NCBI GenBank assembly: GCA_963772365.1
Contig: CAVYXA010000003.1
Span: 320,001 to 384,000, forward strand
DNA: 64,000 nucleotides
Source: an uncultured Verrucomicrobiae bacterium
GTDB lineage: Bacteria; Verrucomicrobiota; Verrucomicrobiia; Chthoniobacterales; UBA10450
Direction: 5' to 3'
The stretch's first letter is position 1. The number at the start of each line of letters is the position of its first letter. The notes beneath the pieces are model-generated. The model had not been told where the DNA came from. It worked only from the letters and a program-made list of their open reading frames with translations, and ran no database searches. The position numbers and the translations under genes were made by a program. Shown here piece by piece: positions 33,602 through 52,610 of the stretch.

Positions 33602-34492
33602 TTATTGCGGGGGCAATTTGGCTATTTCGTTGATCACTTCCTGCGGTTTCCAGCCGTTGCCTCTCCAAATCTGAATGATCTTGCCGCCCGGCCCGATCAA
33701 GGCCGTGGCTAACCCATGGGAGATGGTGCCCCCTTCCGGTTGGACGTAAACGGAGAATGCGGCGGTGAGCTTGTCGATCTCCGCTGCGTCACCGGTCGCA
33801 AATGTCCAGATGCTCGGGTCCGCGTTTTGGTAATCGGCGTATTTGGCGAGCACTTCGGGAGTGTCGAATGCCGGATCGATGGTAATGCTTAACAGTTTCG
33901 TTTGGCTTAACGTAGCCTGACCGGTTTTTATCGCGGTTTGAATTTGAAAGAAATTTTGCGACATGCGTGGGCAAAACGTCGGCAGCGGACAACGAGTGAA
34001 AACAAAGGTGAGGACGAAGGGCGCGCCGCGAAATTTCTCCAGCGTGACGCGTTGTCGGTTTTGATCGACAAGGTCGAATGGCGGCATCTGGTCACCCTGG
34101 TGCAACCGGGCCGACGATGCCGCCGGACGCGCCGGCGACGGTTTCGGCGGTGGCAAATGAACTTCACTGGCCGCGATTGTTTTTACCTTGTCGATCCAAA
34201 CGTCTTCGTCCGTGACATTGAGCCGAAACGAAATTGCGTCACCGATCCTTAGACTGGCAATTTTCTGCGGATCATGCGCAGAGAGCGGCATTGTCATCGA
34301 GGGCATGAAACCGCGAATGTCTTCATGCTCAATGTCGATAGTTCGATGGTCCGGCGCCAGGCCGCGAATGATCCCTCGCGCTTCATAATGACGCGCGCTG
34401 TCATCGTGAGCCTGCGGAGCACGGTGACACGCACCGAGCGCGCCCGCGATGCAGAGCAACGCGATCAGGTCAAGTCCTCGAAATTTTCCCAT
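33602..34492 (-). CDS. Lipoprotein: CusF-like Cu-binding domain plus SCO/SenC domain
   Basis: Lipobox LGAC; IEHEDIRGFMPSMTMP; FTRCPLPTFCP and ISHGLAT. Confidence 0.88.
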   Translation of the reverse strand: MGKFRGLDLIALLCIAGALGACHRAPQAHDDSARHYEARGIIRGLAPDHRTIDIEHEDIRGFMPSMTMPLSAHDPQKIASLRIGDAISFRLNVTDEDVWIDKVKTIAASEVHLPPPKPSPARPAASSARLHQGDQMPPFDLVDQNRQRVTLEKFRGAPFVLTFVFTRCPLPTFCPRMSQNFFQIQTAIKTGQATLSQTKLLSITIDPAFDTPEVLAKYADYQNADPSIWTFATGDAAEIDKLTAAFSVYVQPEGGTISHGLATALIGPGGKIIQIWRGNGWKPQEVINEIAKLPPQ

Positions 34493-34545
34493 GCAGCAAT
34501 TGAAATCGCGGCCCGAATCCGTCTAGGAAAAAATCGCTGGAAACC

Positions 34546-34559
34546 TTGATCTGCATCAA
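34546..34559. promoter_or_regulatory. Perfect FNR/DNR box
   Basis: TTGAT-CTGC-ATCAA, centred 41.5 bp upstream of ATG 34594; TACTCT at 34582-34587. Confidence 0.9.
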
Positions 34560-34593
34560 GGCCGGTCGCGGCAGCTGGACCTACTCTGGAGCC

Positions 34594-35073
34594 ATGAAAA
34601 ACTTATTTGCACCGCTAATCACCGCCGCGGCCAGCGGACTTATCTTTCTGGTCAATGGATGTTCGCCCGCGCCGCAAGCGCCGCCGAAAGCAGTCACCAT
34701 TCAAGCCGACGATAAGATGCGCTATGATCTGACGGCATTCGACGCGTCGCCAGGCCAGAAAATTTCCGTCACGATCAAGAACGTCGGCACGACCCCGAAG
34801 TTTTCGATGGGACATAACTTTGTGATGCTCGATCGCGCCATAAATACCGGTAACGTGCAGGCGTCATTCCTCGATAAAGCGTCGATGGAAGCGTCGCACG
34901 ATTACGTTCCGCCCGGCGACAAGAATGTGCTCGCGCATTCGAAACTGCTCGGCCCGGGCGAGAGCGAAGTCGTTACCTTCAATGCGCCATTCATTCCGGG
35001 CGAGTATCTCTATCTCTGCTCGTTCCCCGGCCATTACTCACAGGGCACAAAGGGTTTCATGACAGTGAAATAA
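34594..35073 (+). CDS. Azurin/auracyanin-like cupredoxin lipoprotein
   Basis: Lipobox-like VNGC; MGHNFV, LLGPGESEVVTF, YLCSFPGH. Confidence 0.9.
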   Translation: MKNLFAPLITAAASGLIFLVNGCSPAPQAPPKAVTIQADDKMRYDLTAFDASPGQKISVTIKNVGTTPKFSMGHNFVMLDRAINTGNVQASFLDKASMEASHDYVPPGDKNVLAHSKLLGPGESEVVTFNAPFIPGEYLYLCSFPGHYSQGTKGFMTVK

Positions 35074-35091
35074 GTTCAGAAAGGATCGACA

Positions 35092-36987
35092 ATGAAAAAC
35101 AAAATCACGCTCACGCTCGCGATCATTATCACCGCGGCCGGTTTAATTAGCTGCGGCAAATCCGGGACCAGTAAGGGAGATCGCACTGCAAACGCAGTCG
35201 CAACTTACGTCGCACCGGGCGAAAAGGATGAATATTATTTGTTCTATTCCGGCGGGCATTCGGGACAGGTGTTTGTCGCGGGGATTCCATCGCTGCGTCA
35301 TATCGTGACCATACCGGTGTTCGCGCCATATCCCGGCACGGGCTACGGCTTCGATGAAGAATCGAAAAAGATGCTCGGCGATTTCACCTGGGGCGATGTG
35401 CATCACCCTGGACTGTCGCAAACGAATTCCAAGTATGACGGGCGCTGGCTATTCGTGAATGACAATGCGAACAACCGGATTGCCCGAATCAATCTTCATG
35501 ACTTTAAGACCCATCAGATCCTTGGGCCGATAGCGAATTCCATCGGCAACCACGGCTCGTCCTTCGTAACGGAGAACACGGAATATATCCTGTGCGCAAC
35601 GCGGTTCTCTGTGCCGCTGCCCAAAGGGCGCGTGGCAGATCCCAAGGATTACGAGAAAGAATTCAACGGAATGGTGAGTGGCATCAAGGTCGATCCGCAA
35701 ACCGGCGACATGAAAGTCGGCTGGCAGATTCTGACGCCGCCATTCGATTGGGACCTGGGCTCGACCGGAAAAGGGCCATCAAGTGGCTGGGCATTCTGGA
35801 CCAGTTATAACTCGGAGATGGCGCACGATCTCCTGGAAGTGAATTCGAGCCAGAAAGATCGCGATCTCTGCGCAATCGTAAATTGGCGCGCGGCCGAGAA
35901 AGCCGTCGCGGATGGCAAAGCGACTATGATGGATGGCGTGCCGATCATCGATCCGGCCAAAGTTCCCGGCGTTTTATATTTCGTCCCAATCGCCAAATCT
36001 CCTCACGGGTTCGATGTCGATCCTACGGGTAAATGGGTGGTGGCCGGCGGAAAACTTTCGCCAACCGCCACGGTCTTGAACTTCGAAAAAGTTCAGGCCG
36101 CGATTAATAACAAGACGTTTGAAGGCGATTTTCGCGGCATTCCAATTTTAAAGTACGAAGCCGTAGTGGAAGGCGAAGTTCCGGTGGGGCTCGGTCCGCT
36201 TCACACCCAATTCGACGGCCGAGGCTTCGCTTACAGCTCGTTATTTATCGATTCGAATATCACCAAGTGGAAACTGCCGCCGTGGACGGATGAAGAGAAA
36301 AAGGACATGAACAAAACTGTGCTCGACAAAGTGCAAACGCACTTCAGTACCGGGCACCTCGTCGTCGCGGGTAGCGATACGGCTCATCCCTACGGAAAAT
36401 GGCTCGTGGCCATGAACAAACTTTCAGCTGGCCGGCACATTGACGTCGGCCCGTCGCAACCGGAATCGAGTCAATTGATCGACATCAGCGGCGACAAAAT
36501 GAAGATGGTAGCCGAGTCGTATAGCGAGCCGGAGCCGCATTTTGCTCAGATTCTCAAAGTGAGTGAAATCCAGCCAGCCGAAATTCTTCCGAAGGACGAA
36601 AATAAAGATCCCGATGCGGTTTGGGACAAAGCGCAGACCGGCGTGACCCGCACCGGCAATCAGGTGGTTGCGAAAATTCTCGCGATTCGCAGCCGTTATT
36701 ATCCCGACCGGATTGATGCGCAAGTAGGCGACGATTTGATCGTGCACGTCACCAATGTCGAGCAAACACGCGACATGATTCACGGGTTCGGTTTGGTCGA
36801 GCACAATATCAACATGGTAATGGACCCAGGCGAAACGAAAACGTTCCACATCAAGTTGACCAAGCCCGGCGTATTTCCGTTCTATTGCACTAACTTCTGC
36901 TCGGCGCTCCACCAGGAAATGCAGGGTTATCTCGTTGTGCGAAATGCGGGACCGACCAGTCCCACGGTCACAGGCGGAGGTAAATGA
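35092..36987 (+). CDS. nosZ: Nitrous oxide reductase, clade II (Sec/lipoprotein signal)
   Basis: CuZ His motifs DVHH, GNHG, SPHG, GPLH, TGHL, EPH; CuA IHGF...CTNFCSALHQEM; no twin-arginine, LISC lipobox. Confidence 0.97.
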   Translation: MKNKITLTLAIIITAAGLISCGKSGTSKGDRTANAVATYVAPGEKDEYYLFYSGGHSGQVFVAGIPSLRHIVTIPVFAPYPGTGYGFDEESKKMLGDFTWGDVHHPGLSQTNSKYDGRWLFVNDNANNRIARINLHDFKTHQILGPIANSIGNHGSSFVTENTEYILCATRFSVPLPKGRVADPKDYEKEFNGMVSGIKVDPQTGDMKVGWQILTPPFDWDLGSTGKGPSSGWAFWTSYNSEMAHDLLEVNSSQKDRDLCAIVNWRAAEKAVADGKATMMDGVPIIDPAKVPGVLYFVPIAKSPHGFDVDPTGKWVVAGGKLSPTATVLNFEKVQAAINNKTFEGDFRGIPILKYEAVVEGEVPVGLGPLHTQFDGRGFAYSSLFIDSNITKWKLPPWTDEEKKDMNKTVLDKVQTHFSTGHLVVAGSDTAHPYGKWLVAMNKLSAGRHIDVGPSQPESSQLIDISGDKMKMVAESYSEPEPHFAQILKVSEIQPAEILPKDENKDPDAVWDKAQTGVTRTGNQVVAKILAIRSRYYPDRIDAQVGDDLIVHVTNVEQTRDMIHGFGLVEHNINMVMDPGETKTFHIKLTKPGVFPFYCTNFCSALHQEMQGYLVVRNAGPTSPTVTGGGK

Positions 36988-37751
36988 ATGGGCAAGCTGA
37001 GAATCTGGAGATCGGAGGCTGTAGCGTGCGCTCTCCTGAGCGCATCTCCTTCGCACATCGCAACAAACAATCCGCTGCGGACAGCGGACGCGACAGCCCT
37101 CACCGAACAAGATCGACAATGACCCAACAAGTTTCAGGATTACTGCGACGCGAGTTCCGGTTTTTGCACAGGCCGCTTAACGGTTGGTCGAGGCTTTTGC
37201 TTCTGGTGGCAGCAGTCACAATTGTGGTCTCGATCTTTTTCCCTCTGTGGAAAATGCATTTGGTGGCGCCCCAATATTCCGACGGACTCGATCTCTACAT
37301 CTTCAGTTACAGGATCCAGGGCGGCGGTTATCACGGCCAGCATCTCGCCGAGATCAACAATCTCAATCATTACATCGGCATGAAAGCGCTCCAGCCCGCC
37401 GATTTCATGGAGATGCGCTGGATGCCATTTGTATTTGGTCTAATCATTTTGCTTACGCTTCGTTCCGTCGTCTTCGGCGAGATGAGCAATGTGGTCGATC
37501 TCTTTGCGCTCTATTCCTATTTCGGCGTGTTTTCGATCGGCTCGTTTTGGTACCGGCTTTATGAATATGGCCACAATCTCGATCCGCACGCGCCCGTGCA
37601 TATCAAGCCGTTCACGCCAATGCTGATCGGTGTGAAGCAAATCGCAAATTTTCGCGAGTACAGTTTCCCGCAAGCCGGAGCGTATCTGCTGTGCGTGTCA
37701 GTGTTGCTGATCGTGCTTGCCGGCTGGGTTTCCAGAAAGGAGCCAGCGTGA
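36984..37751 (+). CDS. nosB: NosB-like membrane protein (alternative start 37119)
   Basis: PLWKMHLVAPQYSDGL, EINNLNHYIGM, LYEYGHNLDPHAP; directly after clade II nosZ. Confidence 0.85.
   Translation: MNGQAENLEIGGCSVRSPERISFAHRNKQSAADSGRDSPHRTRSTMTQQVSGLLRREFRFLHRPLNGWSRLLLLVAAVTIVVSIFFPLWKMHLVAPQYSDGLDLYIFSYRIQGGGYHGQHLAEINNLNHYIGMKALQPADFMEMRWMPFVFGLIILLTLRSVVFGEMSNVVDLFALYSYFGVFSIGSFWYRLYEYGHNLDPHAPVHIKPFTPMLIGVKQIANFREYSFPQAGAYLLCVSVLLIVLAGWVSRKEPA
37017..37098. repeat. GTAG-type REP doublet at the nosZ-nosB junction
   Basis: GGCTGTAGCGTGCGCTCTCCTGAGCGCAT...TCCGCTGCGGACAGCGGACGCGACAGCC. Confidence 0.8.
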
Positions 37752-39076
37752 AGTTATCCGTCCCCCAGATTGTCGCGATCACGCTTTGTCTGACGCTCAA
37801 CGCGGGCGCAGCGATGTTACAGGAGCGCATCGACGCCGCTGCACGTGGCGATACGATCCACGTCGCAGCTGGCATTCACGCCGGTCCGATTAAGATCGAC
37901 AAGTCCATCACGTTGATTGGTGAAGCCGGCGCAGAGATTCGTGGCAACGCAACAGGCAAGGTAATCACGATCGTTGCCGATAATGTAACCATCCGCGGCC
38001 TGCGAATCACCGGTTCCGGCCTGCGATTATCGGACGATGACGCCGCGATCTTCGTGACCGGCAATCGGGTTGCGATCGATAACTGCGAAATCGCCGATTG
38101 CCTCCACGGTATTTACCTCAAAAAAGTTTCCGGCGCGCAGATTCTAAACAACCGCGTCCAAGGCAAGACAACGCTTAAGATTTCAACCGAGCCGGTCGAA
38201 AAGGCGATCGGGCAGAGCGCGGAGAATTGCGATACGACGCTGGTTACGGATCGCCGCGGCAACGGAATTCACCAATGGAATTGCGATGGAAATATAATTC
38301 GCGGCAATGAAATCAGCGATACGCGGGACGGGATTTATTTTTCATTTACCAACAATTCGCGCGTGGAAAACAATCGTATCCACCACGTTCGATACGGCCT
38401 GCATTACATGTATTCGGACGCCAACTCTTTTGAAAACAATAGCTTTAGCGAAAATGCGGCCGGTGCGGCGATCATGTTTTCGAAAGGGCTCGTTGTGCGC
38501 GGGAATCGTTTTATCAACAATCGTGGGCATCGCGCCTATGGCCTGCTATTTCAATCTTGCGATAATAGCCGCATCGTCGGCAACGAGATCAGCGAAAACG
38601 CGATCGGCCTTTCGTTGAATCAATGCAACAACAACGAAGTCACGGCTAATCGCGTCGCGAAAAATTACATTGGATTGCGGTTTGGTTCGAACTCGGACGG
38701 GAATCGATTTACCGAAAACGTTTTTGTCCGGAATTTGCATCCGGTTGAGACCGGCGCGTCCGACGTTTCCAGCAGCAATTGGGAAGTGAATGGAGTTGGT
38801 AATTATTGGGGCGGCGATGTCGATCTTGATCTGGACCGCGACGGCATTAACGACGTGCCGCATCGCGAACTCGATCTGCTCGGAATTTTGCGTCGTGATT
38901 TCCCCGCAATTGCATTTCTCTCCGATAGTCCCGCGTTGAAGCTGCTGCGATTTGCCCATCAGCGCGCCAGCATTCCGGGCGCAAGCTCAATCGAGGATCC
39001 GGCGCCGCTGACCTCGCATTTCTGGCAGATCCGCGCGCAGCGTCTGGCGCGCACAGCTTTGACCAACAACAAATGA
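37748..39076 (+). CDS. nosD: NosD periplasmic maturation protein
   Basis: GTG overlapping the nosB stop; beta-helix repeats, RGNGIH, RDGIYF, RYGLHYMYS, GNYW, DLDRDGINDVP. Confidence 0.93.
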   Translation: MKLSVPQIVAITLCLTLNAGAAMLQERIDAAARGDTIHVAAGIHAGPIKIDKSITLIGEAGAEIRGNATGKVITIVADNVTIRGLRITGSGLRLSDDDAAIFVTGNRVAIDNCEIADCLHGIYLKKVSGAQILNNRVQGKTTLKISTEPVEKAIGQSAENCDTTLVTDRRGNGIHQWNCDGNIIRGNEISDTRDGIYFSFTNNSRVENNRIHHVRYGLHYMYSDANSFENNSFSENAAGAAIMFSKGLVVRGNRFINNRGHRAYGLLFQSCDNSRIVGNEISENAIGLSLNQCNNNEVTANRVAKNYIGLRFGSNSDGNRFTENVFVRNLHPVETGASDVSSSNWEVNGVGNYWGGDVDLDLDRDGINDVPHRELDLLGILRRDFPAIAFLSDSPALKLLRFAHQRASIPGASSIEDPAPLTSHFWQIRAQRLARTALTNNK

Positions 39077-39780
39077 TCGCAGCAGAAAATTTAACAAAAA
39101 GTTACGGACATACAAAAGTGCTGCGCGGCATTTCGCTCGTTGCGGAAACGAAACAAATCACTTTGCTCGTCGGCCCGAACGGTGCCGGCAAAAGCACGTC
39201 GATGAAAATCTTCGCTGGATTGATCCGACCGACTGCGGGCCGCGCGTTTATCGACAAGATCGATATCGGCGAAAAACGGATTGCGGCGCAACGCTTGATT
39301 TCTTACTTACCGCAGAACCCGAGCTTTCACCCGAGGCTCAGTTGCATCGAGATCTTGCGCTTCTATGCGGGACTGCGGAGCGTTGCCGAGTCGCGCTGCG
39401 ACGCGATGCTCGAGCGCACGAGATTGAGCGAGATTGCGAACGTACCTACGGGAAAACTTTCCGGCGGAATGCTGCAACGGCTCGGGCTTGCCTTGCTGCT
39501 GTTGCCCGACGCACCGGTTTTGTTGCTCGACGAGCCGGGCCTGAGTCTCGATCCAGGTTGGCGGAAATGGTTGCAGCAAACGCTCCGTTTCGAGGCTGAG
39601 CGCGGTAAAACGATTCTGATCACGACACATCTGATCGCAGAATGGAACAACGTCGCGCATCGGGCGCTGCTTTGCCGCGATGGCCTCATAGAACGGCAAC
39701 TCGATCCAGCGGATCTGCCACACAATTTCGACGAACTCGAGGATGACAAAGGTGAACTTCGCCTTATCCAAGCGATTTGA
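39073..39780 (+). CDS. nosF: NosF ABC ATPase
   Basis: GPNGAGKS, LSGGMLQR, LLDEP; between nosD and the permease. Confidence 0.88.
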   Translation: MIAAENLTKSYGHTKVLRGISLVAETKQITLLVGPNGAGKSTSMKIFAGLIRPTAGRAFIDKIDIGEKRIAAQRLISYLPQNPSFHPRLSCIEILRFYAGLRSVAESRCDAMLERTRLSEIANVPTGKLSGGMLQRLGLALLLLPDAPVLLLDEPGLSLDPGWRKWLQQTLRFEAERGKTILITTHLIAEWNNVAHRALLCRDGLIERQLDPADLPHNFDELEDDKGELRLIQAI

Positions 39781-40555
39781 CGGGCACCCGATCCACGCCC
39801 TGTTTGCGCGGGAGTTTCGGGCGGCGTTGATCAACCGATATTTCCAGGTTTTTTGCGCGCTTGCGTTAATCGGCGGGATCGCGGCCGCTCTGCTAGCGGA
39901 AGATGCGAATGCAGCCGCAGTATTCGATCTGCAACTGGCGCTCTATTTCGTGTCGCTGTTTGCGCTGCTCGCCGGGGTCGGCAGCGCGCAAGCCGAGCGC
40001 GAAGAATGGCAACTGCTCTTTACGCAACCGTTGCCGCGATCCGGCTACGCGCTGGGGAAATTTTTATCGTTATTGTCGATCTTCGCCGCGGTACTGCTGC
40101 TCTTGTTTTTGCCCGCGCTGTTTGCCGGGACATCGATCCGCATGCTCGCGCCGTTATATGGGCATACCCTTCTTTTCAGTGCGGTATTTCTCGCACTCGG
40201 CCTGGTGTCGGGTTATCTCGCGCAGGATCGTGCACACGCGCTGGTGATCGGCGTAAGCGTGTGGTTGCTGCTGCTCATTGGCGTCGATCTTATCGGCTTG
40301 TTTGCCGCCCGTTGGCCACTCATCCAAAAATTTCCAGATGTGTGGGTCTTGCTCTTAATGTTGAACCCGCTCGATTCTTTTCGAATCGAAGCACTCTTCG
40401 CGCTCGAGCAAATTCCAGCGGAAGCGGCGGACAAGACAGCCCTCGCCAGCTGGTGGATTGCGCATGGCGGCGCGTGGTTCGGCGCGATCGCGATTGCCTG
40501 GTCGTCAGTAATACTCGCGCTAACGAGTTGGCGCTTGCATCGATGGGAGGAATGA
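39743..40555 (+). CDS. nosY: NosY ABC permease
   Basis: Multi-TM protein; LLFTQPL.R, LNPLDSFR; follows nosF. Confidence 0.85.
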   Translation: MTKVNFALSKRFDGHPIHALFAREFRAALINRYFQVFCALALIGGIAAALLAEDANAAAVFDLQLALYFVSLFALLAGVGSAQAEREEWQLLFTQPLPRSGYALGKFLSLLSIFAAVLLLLFLPALFAGTSIRMLAPLYGHTLLFSAVFLALGLVSGYLAQDRAHALVIGVSVWLLLLIGVDLIGLFAARWPLIQKFPDVWVLLLMLNPLDSFRIEALFALEQIPAEAADKTALASWWIAHGGAWFGAIAIAWSSVILALTSWRLHRWEE

Positions 40556-40791
40556 ACATGACTCGCAACTTCAAAACACTCGATGTTCGTCCGATCATCG
40601 CCAAAGGCGTTGAGCCGTTCGAAAAAATTCGGGCCAGTGTCGGCGCGTTGAAATGCGGCGAGGGTTTGTCGATCATCGCGCCGTTTTTGCCTTCTCCTCT
40701 GATTGAGAAGCTCGGCAACGAGGGATTTCAATCTCGCGTCGAACGCCAGCCGGGAGGCGTGTGGGTCACCCATTTTTGGCGGGACGATTGA
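40552..40791 (+). CDS. DUF2249-like small protein
   Basis: ATG overlapping the nosY stop with GGAGG SD; LDVRP...EPFEKI...APFLPSPL. Confidence 0.75.
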   Translation: MNMTRNFKTLDVRPIIAKGVEPFEKIRASVGALKCGEGLSIIAPFLPSPLIEKLGNEGFQSRVERQPGGVWVTHFWRDD

Positions 40792-40815
40792 AAGTGGCTT
40801 GACTACCTTCCAGTC

Positions 40816-41538
40816 ATGCCGCTGGAAGCGACGAAGTTTAGACAAGCCGTCATCGAAAACACGCTGAGCAGTTGCCAGCTTTTCATGGGATTGCCGGCAG
40901 TAGACATCGCGGCGATCGCGTCATTTGTGGTCCCGAAGCACCTGGCAAAAGGAGATTACCTTTTTCGCGAAGGCGATCGTAGCGAAGGATTTTACATCGT
41001 GCAAAAGGGCGCGATCAACGTGCATCGGGTCGGCGCGGCGGGAAAAGAGCAGGTGATTCATCTGTTTCGTCCGGTTGAATCCTTCGCTGAAGCGACGCTC
41101 GCGACCGAGAGCGGTTATCCCGCCGACGCGCGTGCGACCGAGCCGGCAACAGTGCTGCTCATTCCCAAAACAGATTTTGTCGATCTGCTTCGGAAAAGGC
41201 CCGAGCTTTCGTTGCGCATGCTCGGTTCGATGAGCCAGCATTTACGTGTAATTGTCGGGTTGCTCGACGATCTCACGCTCAAAGATATGGAGACGCGCGT
41301 GGCCAACTGGCTGCTGAAACGTTGCCCGCGCCCAATTGGCGATCGGGCAGCCGAGATCAAACTCGACCAAACAAAGCGCGTTCTGGCCGCAGAACTGGGC
41401 GCCAGCAGCGAGACGCTCTCGCGCACCCTGGCAAAATTTCGGGACAAGAACCTGCTGAGGGTGAAAGGGAACAGGATTACTCTGACCGGGCCGCGAGAGT
41501 TGCAGAAGTTGCTTCAGCGGAACCTGGGCGAATTGTAG
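40816..41538 (+). CDS. Crp/Fnr regulator, DNR/NnrR-like
   Basis: LFREGD, YPADARA; recognition helix ETLSR; lacks the FNR N-terminal Cys cluster. Confidence 0.9.
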   Translation: MPLEATKFRQAVIENTLSSCQLFMGLPAVDIAAIASFVVPKHLAKGDYLFREGDRSEGFYIVQKGAINVHRVGAAGKEQVIHLFRPVESFAEATLATESGYPADARATEPATVLLIPKTDFVDLLRKRPELSLRMLGSMSQHLRVIVGLLDDLTLKDMETRVANWLLKRCPRPIGDRAAEIKLDQTKRVLAAELGASSETLSRTLAKFRDKNLLRVKGNRITLTGPRELQKLLQRNLGEL

Positions 41539-41580
41539 TTCGTAAGGCGGCACAAATTAAGATAAGGGCGAGAAGACAAA

Positions 41581-41928
41581 ATGAGCATCAAGCTGGAACG
41601 AGCTTATGAAAAACCGGACAAAACCGATGGCACCCGCATTCTCGTGGACAGACTCTGGCCACGCGGTTTGACCAAGCGCAGAGCCAGCATTGATCTATGG
41701 TTGAAAGAGATTGCCCCGAGTACCGAATTGCGGAAATGGTTCGGGCACGATCCAAAGAAGTGGCGGACTTTCCGCGAACGCTATCAACGAGAGCTCAAAC
41801 GTCACCCCGAGCAGCTTAAGTTGATAAAGAATAAGGCCAGAGGAAGGACGATTACGCTCATCTACGGAGCGCGCGATCCAGAGCACAACCAGGCGGTTGT
41901 GTTGAAGCGGTCTCTTGAAAAGCGCTAA
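41581..41928 (+). CDS. DUF488 family protein
   Basis: RILVDRLWPRGL, IAPSTELRKWFGHDP, HNQAVVLK. Confidence 0.9.
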   Translation: MSIKLERAYEKPDKTDGTRILVDRLWPRGLTKRRASIDLWLKEIAPSTELRKWFGHDPKKWRTFRERYQRELKRHPEQLKLIKNKARGRTITLIYGARDPEHNQAVVLKRSLEKR

Positions 41929-42037
41929 GTGATAAAATGCTGCTCACTCTGCAAGTCAACGTTACTGATTGGAGCTACCGGCAAATAGATCATCCGAAGG
42001 TTGAGCGCGCTTCGAGAAGCAGCGAAGAGTAACGATC

Positions 42038-42574
42038 ATGCTCCTCGCGCACGACCATTCCGAGCTTGATGAAGTCCTCGCTGAATTTTTCCAGGCGCTC
42101 GCGGTGGGCGACGCCGCACAAAGCTTTGAAAAGCTCGATCTGTTTTGGGCGCGATTGGCAGTGCACATTCGCGCCGAACACCTTCACTTGTTTCCCACCC
42201 TGCTTCACGCTCTGGAGTCGCTCGGCCCGACGCAGGGGGGCCGCGTTCCATCTTTGGAGACCACACAAAACACGATCGCGCAACTACGCGCTGACCATGA
42301 CTTTTTCATGACTGAATTGGCGGGGGCAATCAAAGAAGTACGCCGATTGCGCGAAGGCACTCAGGACAAGTCGGCTCTTGTTCAAAACGTGCGGGAGAAA
42401 ATCGTCGCGGTCAGCGAGCGATTGAAGGTGCACAATGAACTGGAAGAGTCCGATGTTTACCCGTTGGCGGAGGTATTGCTCACACCGGTGGAGTGCGTGG
42501 CACTCAACGAGAAGATGCAAAAGGAACTCATCAATCTGCCGGCGCGGTTTAGCCAGCAGAAAAATAATCTTTGA
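42038..42574 (+). CDS. Hemerythrin-like (HHE) protein
   Basis: DHSELD, HIRAEHLHLFP, DHDFF, HNELEESDVYP. Confidence 0.8.
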   Translation: MLLAHDHSELDEVLAEFFQALAVGDAAQSFEKLDLFWARLAVHIRAEHLHLFPTLLHALESLGPTQGGRVPSLETTQNTIAQLRADHDFFMTELAGAIKEVRRLREGTQDKSALVQNVREKIVAVSERLKVHNELEESDVYPLAEVLLTPVECVALNEKMQKELINLPARFSQQKNNL

Positions 42575-42586
42575 ATGGTGGGCGTC

Positions 42587-44188
42587 TTATTGCGTCACGG
42601 TTAGCAGCCCGGCGGCGCCGAGGGTCATATCGCGCATACTGTGATCGACGATTGGATACGTCCCCGGGTGCGGCATAATCGCGTCGAAAACCACGCCCTG
42701 CCCGGGTCCGACGGAGTAAGTGGATACGCCAATAAGCGCATGGTTTGCATCTGCATCGGGGTAAACTGCGGCAAATATTCCGCCAATGATGTGGAAGGAA
42801 CTCCAAAGGTTCGGGCCGGCATCGACGAAGTAGAGCCGCACGCGTTGTCCGACTTTCGCCTGAAGTGGATTATCCTTGTATTGAAAGGCGATGCCATTGA
42901 ATACGACTTCGTCCGGAGTGACGGCGATCATCTTATTATAATCGCCGGTCATGAGGTTGCCTTCTACCTGCTGGGTGTACCATTCGCCTTGCACCAGAAC
43001 GTAGCTGACATCGGCCGGAGGCAGCGGCTTGAGCGGGTCGACTATGATTGCGCCATACATTCCGTTGCCGATGTGCTGCAATACAGGCGGCGTTCCGCAA
43101 TGATAAATGAATACGCCCGGCACCTGTGCCACAAACGAGAACTCCAGTTTCTCGCCCGGATTGATGGAGCGATAAGCAACGCTCCAGTCGATCTGCGCGG
43201 CGTGGAAATCGATCGAGTGCTGCATCATCCCGTTGTTGACGAATTTCACGTGCACAGTTTGTCCTTCGCGCACATGCAGGATTGGGGCCGGGACGGTGCC
43301 GTTGAATGTCCACGCCTGATACTGCACGCCGTTGGCGATTTCGATCGTCGCGTCAGTCGCGACCAGGTTGATATTGACCTCAGGGCCGTTGCCGATCAGC
43401 GGAGGAAGGATCGGAAGAGGCCGTTTGGTAGTTTGCTCCGCTGTGGCCATGCTCAAGGGCGAGATGCTCGTAGCGGCCAAGTTTAGAGGCGAGACCGCCG
43501 CGGCGGCATTGGCCGGAGTCGCAGGCAAGCGGCTGTTGTTCGTTGCGCTCGCCAGAGTGGAGAGCGCAAGGGCGAGGACGACAATGATCGCGCCAATCGC
43601 ACCGAGTTGATGGTCCCAATCAAATGCGGGGCGTACCTCTGGCCAGATCCGCTTCGGTTTCCATTCCGCTACTGATCTCCATCGCGGAAACCGGCGGCCG
43701 ATATAATGATCAAGGCTATAGGGCGAGGAACCGAGGAAACGCTCAAAGAGCGCAGCGGCAATAAAAACCAGCGCATACATGAGCGCCGGTCCGAGATTCG
43801 TTGCGCCCGAAGTGTATGGGCCGCCAAAACCTTCCGCCGTTGACCAGATGAGCAAGCTGAACAGCGCGCCGGCGATATAAGTAAGCCGGCGAGCGATGCC
43901 GAAGAGCAGCCCAATCGCAAGGGCGGTTTCAATCAGTCGCGTGGCGAGAACGAAGAAGCCATCCCGTGGTGAAACAAGTTGAATCCAGAAATGAAACCAC
44001 GCGATGAGCCAGGGGGGCTGCCCGTTGGCGGCGTTTTGCAGGTAACCCACATAATGGGCTGCAAAGCCCGGCTGCCATTTCAGGTAGGCATCGATCGCTA
44101 CGAAGATTCCAAACGTCGCCCGCATACCGGCTGCAGCCACAATCAACCACGCCAACGAGCGCCGATCTTCCATTGACTCCGAGTTCAT
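42587..44188 (-). CDS. nirK: DoxX/DoxD-like membrane domain fused to a Cu-containing nitrite reductase
   Basis: N-term: KWQPGF, IETALAIGLLFG, WSTAEGFGGPY, SLD. C-term: HSIDFH, YHCG, QHIGNGMYG, SSFHIIG, IVDH (all T1/T2 ligands and catalytic Asp/His). Confidence 0.85.
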   Translation of the reverse strand: MNSESMEDRRSLAWLIVAAAGMRATFGIFVAIDAYLKWQPGFAAHYVGYLQNAANGQPPWLIAWFHFWIQLVSPRDGFFVLATRLIETALAIGLLFGIARRLTYIAGALFSLLIWSTAEGFGGPYTSGATNLGPALMYALVFIAAALFERFLGSSPYSLDHYIGRRFPRWRSVAEWKPKRIWPEVRPAFDWDHQLGAIGAIIVVLALALSTLASATNNSRLPATPANAAAAVSPLNLAATSISPLSMATAEQTTKRPLPILPPLIGNGPEVNINLVATDATIEIANGVQYQAWTFNGTVPAPILHVREGQTVHVKFVNNGMMQHSIDFHAAQIDWSVAYRSINPGEKLEFSFVAQVPGVFIYHCGTPPVLQHIGNGMYGAIIVDPLKPLPPADVSYVLVQGEWYTQQVEGNLMTGDYNKMIAVTPDEVVFNGIAFQYKDNPLQAKVGQRVRLYFVDAGPNLWSSFHIIGGIFAAVYPDADANHALIGVSTYSVGPGQGVVFDAIMPHPGTYPIVDHSMRDMTLGAAGLLTVTQ

Positions 44189-44313: not shown

Positions 44314-45481
44314 TCACTCCTCCGGTTCGGCGATCAGCACCTTCGGGAGAACTTTGATCGCCCAAATCGCGGCACCAAGGATCCAAAAAATTGCCGCGGC
44401 GACGAGATGAATGGTGCGCACTGGCGGCACGAGGTCGGCGGCGTAACGGGAAAAGGCGGCCAGAAAAATCAGCGCAGCCACGGCAAGAAAAAACGGCAGG
44501 CGCTTTCTGAATAAATGTGCGTTCCCGCTGTGACCGAACACCACGCGAATACCAACAGTCACGGCAATAAATCCAAAACCGCTGATAAAGATAATATGAA
44601 GAGCGCCGACTCGATACAGCGGCCAGAGCGCTTCGCCAGCCGATCCCGATTACAATAGCCGCGATACCAATGCGCAGACAATCAGCGAGAAAGCTGCGTG
44701 CGCCCGATGGCAGTATTGCGATCAGATAAATCAGAATCGCGCCGAACCGCAGCCACGGTCCCAGCACAGTCAGGCGAAACGCGTCTGCGACGAAAGTAAG
44801 ATCGACAATGAGTCCGATGGCTACCGCGAAGGCTGCGCGAGGTCTCCAGCCGGGTGGAAACGCGCGCGACTCCGGCGCCTCGGGCACCGACATGTTGAGC
44901 AGCTTCGGTAACAGGAATGGCGCGATGCCGAGGATCGGCAACAAAACAAAACCTTGCTCGAGAAACATCGCGCCGAGTCGATAGCATTTCGCGTAGAGTT
45001 GATTTTCAAACAATCCGAGCAGAATTGCCCCGGCAAGACCATTCAAAAGACCGAGCGCCACGAGCGCGAAATTTGGCGGCGGCGAATCTTTGCGGCGGAT
45101 AAATCGTTTGCCGATCAAGAACAACAGAGTTGCGATGCAAAACGTGAACAAAAAATCGCCGCTGCGATTTGTGCCGCCGAAATGCAAACCCGCCGCGAGC
45201 AAGAGCAGGGTCAAAAGGCTCAGCACAGCCTTGCCCGAAAATGAAGCTGTCGATGTTATCCGCGGCCCGGCCGTTCCCAGAAACCCGATGATGAATGAGC
45301 CCATGAAGCCTTCGATCATCAATCGCGCGTGGGAAATTGACGGATACACACTGATCCAGCCAGCATAATAAGCCGGCCATAGCGCGACACCGATCATGCC
45401 GAGCAAAAGCCCGGTCGGGAAAAAGATCCGAAACGGCTCTTGGTAGAAAAATGGCGGGACGTGTGGAAGGAAAGCTTTCAT
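44314..45481 (-). pseudogene. nnrS: NnrS-family protein with a frameshift near 44640
   Basis: EPFRIFF, HARLMIEGF, GFLGTA in one frame; LHIIFISGFG...RVVFGHSG continues in another frame. Confidence 0.8.
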
Positions 45482-46577: not shown

Positions 46578-48491
46578 CTATTTTCGTTGGGAACCGGGAT
46601 TTTTAGGCGCCAGATCAGCTACGATTTGCTGGAAGCGGGGATCGCCGCGCAGTGGATCCCAATATGGATGCAACTTTAGATTTCCGTAGCTCAATGTGCT
46701 GGGGATTCGGAGGGTTGCCTCGATTTGCTGAATGGCCAGATCTTTCTCGCCGCACCACGCGTAAATAGCGGCGAGATATTTCATCAGCTCCGCGCCATCG
46801 AGCGCGTCTTTCGTAACGGGCAGTATCTCGACAGCGCGCCGGCCTTCGCGCATCGCTTCATCGTTGCGTCCTAAGGCAGCGTCGATCATTCCCAGGACAG
46901 TGTAAACCGGACCGTAATCCGGTTGTTCACGAGCGGTCTTTTCCACTTGGGCACGGGCAGCGAGGAAAGCAGTTCGCGCTGTGACAGCATCGCCCTTGGC
47001 GCGAGCCGCGAGCGCTTCCCAATAGACGCGCGGGAAGTTCAAGTCAGTGGAAGTTCCGGTGGCGGGGATTGCCGCGAGCGCGCGAGCGATTCCGGCGGGA
47101 TCGCGCTCGCAAAGGGCAAGGTAAAGCCACTGGTCGGCCATGTCGCCAGCAGAGTGCGGATTCTCAGCAAGAAGGGCGTCGATCGTTTGATGCAGCCGCC
47201 GAGTGTCTGCCCGCCATTCGAGGTCCACCAAACCGCGCGTGATTCGGTTATCGAGATCGCGCGGCGCGAGCTCAAGCGCGCGGTCGAGCGCAGCAGCCAT
47301 CGCCCCAAATTGCCGAAATTCCTGATAACTGTATGCGATCTGCTGAAAGATGAAAACATTGCGCGGATCCAGTTTGACTGCTCGTTGCAAGCTGCGCGCC
47401 GATTCGTTCCATAAACCTTGTCGTCGGTCGATGTAGCCAGCCAGCTCGAAAGCCTCCGAGTTATTGGGAAGCAGACGTTGAGTGTGCGCAAGCTCGGCGC
47501 GAGCCCCATCGTAATCGAGGTGACAGCGATAGAGAAAATTTGCCCTGGCGAGATGCGTCTCGCCCGCCTCCGGGCGGAGGCGGATGACCGTCTTGAGCGC
47601 GGCCTCCGCCAATGCGAGCCGGGTGGGAGTATGATCAAATCCGAAGAAGTAAATGTAGTTGTGTGCCGCGCCTAATTGACACCAGGCGAGGTAAAAATTC
47701 GGATCGCGCGCAATGGCTTGATCGAGCGCTTGGACCGCTTGGAACAATTTCTCGTTGATTTGCGCGTTGGAAACTGTCGCAACAAGCGTCTTACCGCGAA
47801 GATAAAGAGCGTAGGCAGCAAGGTCATGAGTCGGCTGCTCCTCGACGGCGATTTTTTCCTGCGGTGAAACGGTCGCGTGCAGCTGGGAAGCGATTCGTTG
47901 CAGAATGTCGCCCTGTACGCCGAAGATGTCGCTCAGCTCGCGTTTGTAACTCACATTCCACAACCTGGCTCCTCGACGGGCATCCGTGAGTTGTACGGTG
48001 ATTTGCACTTTGTCACCCGCAAGACGCACTGTGCCTTCGAGAATATGGCCGGCGCCGAGACTCTGCGCGATCTCGCGCAGGTCACGCCGCCGATCCGGCG
48101 TATAGCTACTGACTGAAGTACGGCTGATCACCCTCAAATCCGCAACCTTGGAAAGCGTGGTGATAATGTCATCCTGCACGGCTTCCGCGAGAGATCGATC
48201 TTGCTCCGCATCACCCATTTCATCGAATGGCAGCACCACAATATTCTTTTCCGGGAAGGAAGCCACGTAAGCCGACTCTGCCGAGGGCGGGGCCGTGATT
48301 TGCGGGGCCAGCTGGCGGGAAAGGCTCCATAACCCGAAGCCCAGTGCAAATGCGGTCGCCAGCAGGACAACGACTGCAAGAGGCCGCCATCGTCTCTGGG
48401 CAAGAGGCGATGAAATATCCGTCCCCGGGGGTTGCGTTTCGTGATCAGTTGGCGTTTTGGGCTCGGCCATCTGCGCGGTGTGAAAATTCAT
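46578..48491 (-). CDS. Membrane-anchored TolB-N/FlgO-like plus TPR protein
   Basis: TM segment, IVVLPF, LRVISRTSV, TPRs, C-terminal WDPLRGDPRF; lacks the usual N-terminal kinase or cyclase domain. Confidence 0.8.
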   Translation of the reverse strand: MNFHTAQMAEPKTPTDHETQPPGTDISSPLAQRRWRPLAVVVLLATAFALGFGLWSLSRQLAPQITAPPSAESAYVASFPEKNIVVLPFDEMGDAEQDRSLAEAVQDDIITTLSKVADLRVISRTSVSSYTPDRRRDLREIAQSLGAGHILEGTVRLAGDKVQITVQLTDARRGARLWNVSYKRELSDIFGVQGDILQRIASQLHATVSPQEKIAVEEQPTHDLAAYALYLRGKTLVATVSNAQINEKLFQAVQALDQAIARDPNFYLAWCQLGAAHNYIYFFGFDHTPTRLALAEAALKTVIRLRPEAGETHLARANFLYRCHLDYDGARAELAHTQRLLPNNSEAFELAGYIDRRQGLWNESARSLQRAVKLDPRNVFIFQQIAYSYQEFRQFGAMAAALDRALELAPRDLDNRITRGLVDLEWRADTRRLHQTIDALLAENPHSAGDMADQWLYLALCERDPAGIARALAAIPATGTSTDLNFPRVYWEALAARAKGDAVTARTAFLAARAQVEKTAREQPDYGPVYTVLGMIDAALGRNDEAMREGRRAVEILPVTKDALDGAELMKYLAAIYAWCGEKDLAIQQIEATLRIPSTLSYGNLKLHPYWDPLRGDPRFQQIVADLAPKNPGSQRK

Positions 48492-51191: not shown

Positions 51192-51797
51192 ATGAAGAAG
51201 TGGTCTTTTGATGCGGATTATCTTCAATCGTGCAATTGCGATTACGGCTGTCCGTGCGAGTTCGCCGCGCCTCCTACGACTGGTTTTTGCGAAGGCATGG
51301 GCGTGTGGAAGATCGACAAAGGTAAATATGGTGACCTGTCGCTGGACGGGCTGGGGCTCGGGTTCGCGGCGAAATGGCCGGGGGCGATCCACGAGGGTAA
51401 CGGCACCGTCTGTCTTTTTGTCGATGAAAAGGCATCGCAGGAACAACGCGATGCCTTGCTCGAGATCGGCTCGGGGAAGGCAGGTGGGCTGCCGTTTGAA
51501 ATTCTGGCCACGACATTCAGCACGTTGCTCGATCCGCAATTTGTTCCGTTCGATGTCAACATTGATGGACTCCAAAGCGCGGCCCGGTTGGGTGATAATT
51601 TCCGGATCGCCCTCGAGCCGATCAAAAATCCGGTGACTGGTGCGGAGGAAAGCGTGACCGTGAATCACGGGACTGGATTTATTTTCAAAAGCGCAGACTG
51701 CGCATCGGCCAGGGAAGGATCGGTCGCAGTGGACGAGATGAAGTTCAGCTACCCGAACAAAGCTGGGTTTGTCTCGCGCATTCACTACGGTAACTAG
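51192..51797 (+). CDS. DUF1326 family protein
   Basis: SCNCDYGCPC...FCEG, WPGAIHEGNG. Confidence 0.85.
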   Translation: MKKWSFDADYLQSCNCDYGCPCEFAAPPTTGFCEGMGVWKIDKGKYGDLSLDGLGLGFAAKWPGAIHEGNGTVCLFVDEKASQEQRDALLEIGSGKAGGLPFEILATTFSTLLDPQFVPFDVNIDGLQSAARLGDNFRIALEPIKNPVTGAEESVTVNHGTGFIFKSADCASAREGSVAVDEMKFSYPNKAGFVSRIHYGN

Positions 51798-51806
51798 TCG
51801 GCGGCT

Positions 51807-52610
51807 ATGAACGCATCGCTGGCCCTGCCGCGACGCGAACGTCTCCTCATCCTTGGAGGTGTGGGTGGCATCGCCGTGCTGGCATGGGCTTACACGATCT
51901 TTGAAGCGCGCCGGATGAACCTGACGAGTGTGTGCGAGTGCATGCGCATGAAAATGTCAGGCCCTGACCTCACGTCATGGCCGGCGATGACGCTGCTGCC
52001 GCTATTTCTAATGTGGGCGATCATGATGATCGCCATGATGCTGCCGAGCGCGATGCCGATGATCCTGACGTTCGCTGCCGTCTCGCGCAATCGTCAAGGT
52101 ATTGGGCGCCACTACATCCCGCTGTCGATCTTCGTTCTTGGTTACGTGGCAATCTGGTGTGCGTTCAGCGTTGTGGCCGCGGTCAGCCAATGGTGGCTGC
52201 ATCGAGCGGCGTTGCTGTCGGCATCAATGATGAGCAACAGCCGATGGTTTGCCGGCGCGCTTTTGCTCGCGGCCGCTGCTTTCCAATTCACGCCATTCAA
52301 ACGTGCTTGTCTCACTCATTGCCGTGGCCCGCTTGAATTCATCATGACCCGCTGGCGCGAAGGAAACGTTGGCGCCTTTCGAATGGGATTGGAACACGGT
52401 GCATTTTGCGCCGGTTGTTGCTGGGCATTGATGGCCTTGCTGTTCGTCGCCGGCGTGATGAACATTCTCTGGATCGCGGCACTGACCCTGTTCGTGTGCC
52501 TTGAAAAAGTAATGCCCGCTCGCGCTCGAGTGAGCGCATTGACCGGCGTGCTCCTCGCGGTGTGGGGGATCGCGATCCTCGCCGGCCAGTTCATTTCGAG
52601 CGTGTCTTGA
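51807..52610 (+). CDS. DUF2182 metal-binding membrane protein
   Basis: MMIAMMLPS, QFTPFKRACLTHCRGP, CAGCCWALM, GVMN. Confidence 0.88.
   Translation: MNASLALPRRERLLILGGVGGIAVLAWAYTIFEARRMNLTSVCECMRMKMSGPDLTSWPAMTLLPLFLMWAIMMIAMMLPSAMPMILTFAAVSRNRQGIGRHYIPLSIFVLGYVAIWCAFSVVAAVSQWWLHRAALLSASMMSNSRWFAGALLLAAAAFQFTPFKRACLTHCRGPLEFIMTRWREGNVGAFRMGLEHGAFCAGCCWALMALLFVAGVMNILWIAALTLFVCLEKVMPARARVSALTGVLLAVWGIAILAGQFISSVS

Follow-up and report, generated by a model that had tools for sequence, protein, structure and literature searches.

What does a copper nitrite reductase (NirK) gain from a polytopic membrane domain placed in front of it, and could that domain supply its electrons? The question is raised by a gene in the window (the whole stretch of DNA that was analyzed, 64,000 nucleotides), where a single 533-aa ORF on the minus strand (42587..44188) encodes a DoxX-like domain, a fifth helix, a linker, and NirK in succession. 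We favor, at a probability of about 40%, a reading in which the DoxX-like domain holds NirK at the outer membrane face and possibly oxidizes menaquinol to feed the type 1 copper directly; the support for direct quinol feeding, our leading reading, is circumstantial. The anatomy of the fusion is solid, while its mechanism is not. If quinol does feed NirK directly, the proton-pumping complex III would be bypassed, with energy yield and the control of nitric oxide (NO) production changed accordingly.

The original prediction had described one 533-aa ORF at this place, with about five hydrophobic helices and the motifs KWQPGF, IETALAIGLLFG, WSTAEGFGGPY, and SLD in its N-terminal part. The ORF is as described, now assigned to the minus strand, and all of the motifs are found in the translation; hydropathy gives four peaks of at least 1.5, with helix 3 (residues 104–118) below that value, and the AlphaFold2 model is helical at all five places. 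Four helices, with the N terminus predicted inside, make up the DoxX-like membrane domain (residues 14–176; 43661..44149, minus strand; delimited by model, hydropathy, and alignment). They are followed by a fifth membrane helix that is predicted to carry NirK to the outer face (residues 195–213; 43550..43606, minus strand; model and hydropathy), by a linker of low model confidence with a conserved TPxNAAAAVxPL motif (residues 214–262; 43403..43549, minus strand; alignment and model), and by the two-domain NirK with an SSFH-type active-site motif (residues 263–533; 42590..43402, minus strand; profile, fold, and ligand residues). Modeled as a single chain, the full protein had a pLDDT of 78.8 and a pTM of 0.54, with values below 50 across the disordered linker.

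A chance fusion or an assembly error is ruled out by full-length homologs and by the occurrence of both parts in one ORF elsewhere. The best 120 of 2765 homologs cover 84 to 100% of the query at 58 to 92% identity. When the membrane domain alone was used as the query against species genomes and the best 80 of 276 relatives were retained, the DoxX-like domain and NirK lay within one ORF in 72 of the 80 loci (7 of these 72 shortened by a contig end or frameshift); of the remaining eight, five are cut by the contig edge, one is interrupted by a frameshift, and two are short additional copies whose genomes also carry an intact fusion. The possibility, raised with the original prediction, that homologs are always encoded as two genes is thus answered in the negative, and the search it proposed for the same architecture in other genomes returned about seven phyla. 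Two Verrucomicrobia genomes with an intact fusion carry, at L020 and L034, a second copy of the membrane domain that lacks NirK.

For the C-terminal part, the expectation had been that every NirK ligand and the catalytic Asp and His are kept, and all nine residues are indeed present and near-invariant across 185 full-length fusions. They are H324, C364, H372, and M377 for type 1 copper, H329, H363, and H516 for type 2 copper, and D327 and H466 for catalysis, roles that we take from motif position relative to characterized NirKs (numbering supported by the alignment to Geobacillus NirK). Eight of the nine are invariant in 185/185, and H516 is found in 182, with gaps in the other 3. A two-domain laccase is ruled out, as no HxH type 3 motif follows residue 255. 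The best solved sequence relative is Geobacillus NirK (PDB 3x1e, 3wkq; E 6e-62), which has the same ligand set, and comparison of the model with solved structures placed the NirK fold closest to two-cupredoxin nitrite reductases, with Nitrosomonas europaea NirK (4kns) as the best match (Z 34.5, rmsd 1.4 over 258 residues) and Geobacillus and N. europaea together spanning Z 33 to 34.5 and rmsd 1.4 to 1.8 over about 260 residues. The entries from both organisms lack a polytopic membrane domain and match only over residues 230–533 of the fusion. The TIGR02376 score of 191.7 bits falls under the curated cut-off of 296.3 bits, which lowers the automatic label only; four fused relatives score 195 to 213 bits, and in a profile search of the genome the fusion protein was the sole TIGR02376 match. 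The NirK identity of the C-terminal part is thus supported, and by analogy to its solved relatives it is predicted to form a trimer that reduces nitrite to NO. Because the score stays under the NCBI NirK cut-off and the NCBI name of fusion proteins is only "multicopper oxidase domain-containing protein", the fusion can be missed in annotation.

By record title, the loci (best 80 of 276) come from Verrucomicrobiota, Chloroflexota/Thermomicrobiota, Pseudomonadota, Gemmatimonadota, Acidobacteriota, Vulcanimicrobiota, and one Nitrospirota-labeled bin, which nests among Verrucomicrobia in the tree. The fusion also occurs in Nitrolancea, Rhodanobacter, Paraburkholderia, and Gemmatimonadota, and its cultured carriers include Opitutus terrae (P0118), Rhodanobacter thiooxydans, and Paraburkholderia denitrificans. 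The gene is patchy, with a match in 2/401 genomes of the phylum, 8/301 of the order, and 3/301 of the Anaerolineae-type class, and it is the main form of nirK in the family of this genome (this genome and 4 of 5 nirK-bearing relatives, 39 scored), whose closest named relatives are Ca. Udaeobacter and Chthoniobacterales. A C-terminal class I cytochrome c is present in 33 ORFs of the 80 loci and in one representative protein (34 in total). These DoxX-NirK-cytochrome c proteins of ∼665 aa are found at L041–L080, from Rhodanobacter, Paraburkholderia, Gemmatimonadota, and one Acidobacteriota bin; L080 holds two three-part copies within 7 kb. A tree built from 90 membrane domains places the 30 fused rows together (support 89), as sister to proteins with the fifth helix and without NirK; rows that keep Lys37, including the window protein, branch first, and the cytochrome c forms nest within the Lys-less group. 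The NirK tree is less clear on branching order, and because both are quick, midpoint-rooted trees, the order of events is a reading and not a result. We also observed other architectures of the domain (P0249, P0264, P0270, P0300, P0317, P0330, and P0255), namely tandem duplications and fusions to a cupredoxin-like tail (P0300, identified by eye and without a Pfam match), an HxH-bearing outer domain, or an N-terminal helix-turn-helix. We conclude that the NirK architecture is real and undescribed, and that the family takes the forms of stand-alone domain, DoxX-NirK, and DoxX-NirK-cytochrome c.

We call the membrane domain DoxX-like because its relatives and its fold support the label, not because the protein itself has a Pfam match. 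The fusion protein did not match Pfam DoxX or DoxD even at E 1 and does not reach the PF07681 gathering score of 23.6. Among 44 fused homologs, 14 have weak DoxX matches (E ≤0.5, best 0.0039) and 2 have weak DoxD matches (best E 0.005), while the DoxX cut-off is passed by 4 of 12 short relatives and by 9 of 74 representatives (the 74 tested out of 142 new ones). The stand-alone relatives are ∼200 aa long with about 50% identity to the membrane domain (pLDDT 82.1 for the one modeled), the R-x13-K, E, SxD layout is common to the domain and a canonical DoxX of this genome, and the ESM Atlas gave a DoxD/DoxX cluster (score 0.89), which is a lead only. DoxD is the membrane subunit of thiosulfate:quinone oxidoreductase (TQO), and it has the superfamily layout in common with the fusion, with R in the first helix, E in the second, and a terminal SxD. 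A true TQO DoxD is nevertheless ruled out: the score stays below the PF04173 cut-off, the hhalign probability is 7%, and the Cys loop, WLGxTCLDEW in strong DoxD members, is replaced by EGFGGPY in the family of the fusion, so that the domain is DoxX-like and not a TQO subunit. The systems differ further in that the scanned neighbors of the fusion lack DoxA and the fused partner is NirK. Thus, the original label "DoxX/DoxD-like" is supported as regards a DoxX-superfamily fold and fails for DoxD proper (no Pfam match, Cys loop replaced), and the HMMER check proposed alongside it was negative for the protein itself and positive for relatives that pass the DoxX cut-off.

In three fold searches, with models of the full protein and of a stand-alone relative, the top match was NACHO/TMEM35A, presumably a DoxX-like family member and an assembly factor (Z 8.3 and 9.5, rmsd 3.1–3.3, Z values that are common for helical bundles). 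Foldseek gave this protein a probability of 0.98 at E 0.54 and returned no match to the membrane domain at E 0.001, and when solved structures were searched with a profile of the domain alignment, two nonsignificant cellulose synthase matches and nothing else came back. The numbers of Lys and Arg per loop (loop 4, 6.3; loop 2, 2.0; loop 3, 0.0) point to five helices with the N terminus in and the C terminus out. Because c-type heme is attached outside the membrane, the CxxCH cytochrome c that follows NirK in some relatives agrees with this topology, and the proposal that the fifth helix puts NirK outside is supported on both counts. We therefore predict from sequence an N-in/C-out protein of five helices with NirK on the outer face; in this predicted topology, loops 1 and 3, on the same side as NirK, carry most of the conserved residues.

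The conserved residues of the membrane domain are R23, D33, K37, W38, R84, E87, W115, E119, N131, Y138, and D160. E87, W115, E119, Y138, and D160 are kept in all groups, fused and stand-alone, and H45, Y49, N52, R84, and N131 are kept in NirK fusions only. No heme, Fe-S, or Cys ligands are conserved in the membrane domain, nor is any Met, and His is conserved only at position 45, in fusions. The conserved polar and aromatic residues gather at the predicted outer face, on the NirK side. Across 67 fusions (2211 pairs), mean pairwise identity was 58% for the domain and 67% for NirK, with a minimum of 42% and a rank correlation of 0.76, and the domain is thus conserved far beyond the needs of an anchor. 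K37 is present in 115/151 fusions without cytochrome c and 0/34 with it, in 79/80 actinobacterial relatives, and in 64/68 distant relatives, counts taken from redundant groups after rows below 140 profile positions were dropped, with at least two of the "distant" rows being fragments of fusions. Lys37 loss tracks cytochrome c gain one way only, as 36/151 fusions lack both. Since K37 is lost in many fusions in which the domain is still conserved, Lys-based chemistry cannot be its sole job.

A connection to quinol chemistry comes from remote kin. According to the accessible parts of the respective sources, Lys218 of gamma-glutamyl carboxylase (GGCX) deprotonates vitamin K hydroquinone (PMC12647623), TQO reduces decylubiquinone (PMC6335251), and menaquinol has been modeled in a bacterial HTTM protein (bioRxiv 10.64898/2026.08.19.745780). 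GGCX appeared in our fold searches with Z 7.0 and 7.7 (two models), and the better match (Z 7.7, rmsd 6.4) is to its first HTTM half, the half without Lys218. In hhalign with 124 HTTM rows, the family profile matched HTTM repeat 1 at a probability of 63% (E 7e-5), while the nonsignificant alignment to repeat 2 (E 0.11) sets R23, K37, and E87 on R204, K218, and D263, so that the R-x13-K spacing and the helix-2 acid fall in register. A local run that used five HTTM rows put repeat 1 at 44% and repeat 2 at 0.2%, and small HTTM and DoxD alignments gave probabilities of 1 to 12%. The domain of the fusion differs from the vitamin K carboxylase in being a single repeat without the lumenal domain. This genome also has an HTTM-domain gene of its own (G000:C5:199416-199979; 31 bits, above cut-off). 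The genome carries both menaquinone family genes of the futalosine pathway. Complex prediction with residues 8–236 and two NirK copies gave a score of 0.38 against 0.00 for the best control, which is weak support; the mark for this score is reached by 116/157 solved and 2/215 mismatched pairs, and only 18 of the 157 solved pairs, but both mismatches, lie at 0.60 or below. The runs shared at least 50% of contacts at a partner pLDDT of at least 69, with no interface given, and the partner included linker motif 224–236, which may be NirK's own arm.

In the mechanism that we propose, the DoxX-like domain would anchor NirK on the outer membrane face, and K37, E87, R84, and conserved Trp/Tyr residues would form a quinol site without cofactors, set within the outer half of the bundle. 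NirK would dock on the outer loops of the domain, and electrons would pass in one-electron steps from quinol to the type 1 copper. Lineages without K37 would have gained a tethered cytochrome c, and R84 may replace the Lys.

The same domain could instead be a scaffold or assembly module with no redox role, which anchors or oligomerizes NirK, aids its export or folding, or parks it beside complex III, with electrons arriving via azurin or cytochrome c. Under this alternative, which we judge somewhat unlikely, the match to the assembly factor NACHO, the lack of cofactor ligands, and the presence of complex III genes and azurin are what one would expect; the 34 fusions with their own cytochrome c retain the domain although K37 is absent, self-association is suggested by the tandem duplications seen for the domain, and MauE is a precedent for a DoxX-like maturation protein. 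However, E87, E119, D/N131, and Y138, all of them polar and buried, are conserved in fused and stand-alone forms, and together with the near-universal K37 of the actinobacterial and distant relatives this looks more like a site than a scaffold. Ordinary NirKs elsewhere, moreover, manage with just a signal peptide or a single anchor.

The stand-alone relatives bring copper into the argument. We collected 80 metagenome loci of an actinobacteria-like stand-alone form (the lineage label being drawn from one source name and gene content), none of which contained the NirK fusion; they are close kin and not independent cases. A sulfocyanin-like gene, Met-rich and bearing a type 1 copper motif, lies directly downstream in 46 of the 55 loci with enough sequence, a CsoR-like repressor within 1.5 kb in 28/41, and a copA-like P1B ATPase in 14/26. 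At L084:4869-6445 and 45 similar loci, the stand-alone DoxX-like gene and the anchored Met-rich sulfocyanin-like protein form a two-gene unit divergent from SHOCT, CsoR-like, and cupredoxin-P1B ATPase genes, and this pair looks like an undescribed copper-homeostasis module. As an independent case, DoxX, HMA, and cupredoxin genes follow one another in one locus of the Anaerolineae-type class, and of four plasmid records, two have multicopper oxidase genes nearby, one has a metal-sensitive regulator, and one has nothing related. From these neighbors, the family keeps company with outer-face copper proteins, a pattern compatible with an electron link to type 1 copper and also with copper handling. 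The domain might accordingly deliver copper to the attached cupredoxin sites or set its redox state there, a role taken over from copper-homeostasis operons. The repressor, ATPase, and sulfocyanin-like genes, the HMA and cupredoxin genes of the Anaerolineae-type locus, and the multicopper oxidases on 2/4 plasmid records all speak for such a module, but we consider it unlikely: no Met or Cys is conserved, H45 is absent from stand-alone forms, a CusF-SCO chaperone is already in the window, and the other two plasmid records lack a copper enzyme nearby.

Directly upstream of the fusion is nnrS (44317..45448, minus strand; Pfam), read in two frames owing to a frameshift that is possibly a sequencing error; several genes elsewhere in the genome are also in pieces (alternative complex III region, C3:534475-540485), which suggests long-read indel errors. 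Convergent with the fusion is a hemerythrin-domain gene (42038..42574, plus strand; Pfam), preceded by DUF2249, Crp/Fnr-family regulator, and DUF488 genes (40555..41928, plus strand; ORFs and Pfam) and by a clade II nos cluster of Sec-type nosZ, nosB-like, nosD, ABC ATPase, and permease genes (35092..40555, plus strand), in which nosZ and nosD score above cut-off and the nosB-like label is our assumption from position, with no Pfam match. A profile search identified an azurin-like cupredoxin (34594..35073, plus strand), 7.5 kb from the fusion, as a candidate conventional electron donor for NirK or NosZ. A CusF-SCO1 copper chaperone gene (33602..34492, minus strand; Pfam) is divergent from it, and between the SCO and azurin-nosZ genes lies a perfect FNR-type box (34546..34559, unstranded), the sole zero-mismatch site in the window to what we take to be the consensus. 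From the fusion to position 48100, no FNR-type box with up to two mismatches occurs, and nothing promoter-like was seen upstream of the fusion. A word-based comparison with public sequencing runs gave low shares of matching words and listed no RNA run as a carrier. At 51192-52610, the window further contains paired genes for DUF1326 and PpoB2 (copper chaperone), with a cation-efflux gene after them. Of note, the nos cluster, CusF-SCO, and FNR-type box (window 33602-42574) belong to a genome with nirK and no recognized NO reductase.

Among 33 Verrucomicrobia-type fused loci, nnrS (13), hemerythrin (10), and Crp/Fnr (6) genes recur beside the fusion; nosZ was not found in these 33, whose 6-kb flank would not reach it. 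A stress-protection module, in which the domain handles quinones, NO, or reactive species from the NirK site independently of electron supply, would fit this recurrence, the stress roles of other DoxX proteins, and a genome in which no NO reductase was recognized and three intact heme-copper oxidase subunits keep the HPxVY Tyr, but is improbable, as the same neighbors are nearly absent from the 47 other fused loci (nnrS 0, hemerythrin 0, Crp/Fnr 2) and from the 80 stand-alone loci, and the genome is 90% complete with a fourth oxidase gene in pieces.

In the original prediction, the membrane domain could work without bc1 or soluble carriers, a proposal that is not supported in view of the bc-type, alternative complex III (ACIII)-type, and azurin-like genes of this genome. 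Its bc-type cytochrome b is clustered with a multiheme protein and an oxidase, and NrfD-family genes follow five-CxxCH and 1119-aa ORFs, as in ACIII. An E. coli control returned no bc-type cytochrome b. Among five further carrier genomes, three have cytochrome b and two have NrfD-family genes, so that with complex genes in 6/6 genomes checked, the fusion as a stand-in for a missing complex III is unsupported. The gene run at G000:C3:56380-65347 (Rieske-like, cytochrome b, nine-CxxCH, six-CxxCH, CuA-type subunit II with CxxCH, and ba3-like subunit I) is a possible bc-oxidase supercomplex, with labels assigned partly by eye.

Returning to direct quinol feeding of NirK, we hold to it because the domain is conserved beyond an anchor, its polar and aromatic cluster faces NirK, and its relatives neighbor outer-face copper proteins, and because of its quinone-handling kin (TQO and vitamin K carboxylase), the weak complex score, and the futalosine menaquinone genes. 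We counted against it the absence of cofactor ligands, the K37 losses, the complex III-type and azurin-like genes, the copper-homeostasis clusters of relatives, NACHO as the best fold match, and the pTM of 0.54 with a disordered linker. As a doubtful extension, we postulate that this DoxX branch is a cofactor-free menaquinol:type-1-copper oxidoreductase module, remotely related to the vitamin K-binding half of gamma-glutamyl carboxylase and linked to NirK in one lineage, with sulfocyanin-like cupredoxins as its partners in others. If true, the protein would be the first known case of a copper nitrite reductase supplied straight from the quinone pool, and a large DoxX subfamily would gain a biochemical function. 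Whichever reading proves right, NO formation by the fusion offers a simple read-out for the old question of DoxX protein function.

In a literature search that lay mostly outside subscription journals, we found no description of a DoxX-NirK fusion. The terms "DoxX" and "transmembrane" are absent from the accessible parts of PMC10999283 and PMC12486414, as are "DoxX" and "Opitutus" from that of PMC4770552, whose sequence table may bear on the fusion. The portion of the latter source available to us describes cytochrome c and cupredoxin extensions of NirK, and also the long NirK of actinobacteria (Propionibacterium acnes type), whose predicted N-terminal membrane domain spans 400 aa and has no function assigned there (PMC4770552). 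With about 900 aa, a 400-aa membrane part, and an extra cupredoxin, that protein is unlike the window protein, and no protein of ∼900 aa is among the best 150 relatives of the domain (longest 672 aa). Further parallels are the NirKs of Ralstonia pickettii (3ziy) and Pseudoalteromonas haloplanktis (2zoo), tethered to cytochrome c, and those of Hyphomicrobium (2dv6) and Thermus scotoductus (6hbe), tethered to a cupredoxin, all of which carry an extra fused domain, as here. In those enzymes, the extra domains are soluble metal carriers, whereas in the window protein the added part is a cofactor-free membrane domain that precedes NirK, and nothing is appended after NirK. The 34 relatives that end in a class I cytochrome c share that feature with the cytochrome c-tethered NirKs, and these three-part proteins are extended at both ends, unlike the 267 NirKs among which, in the accessible part of the survey, no such double extension was found (PMC4770552).
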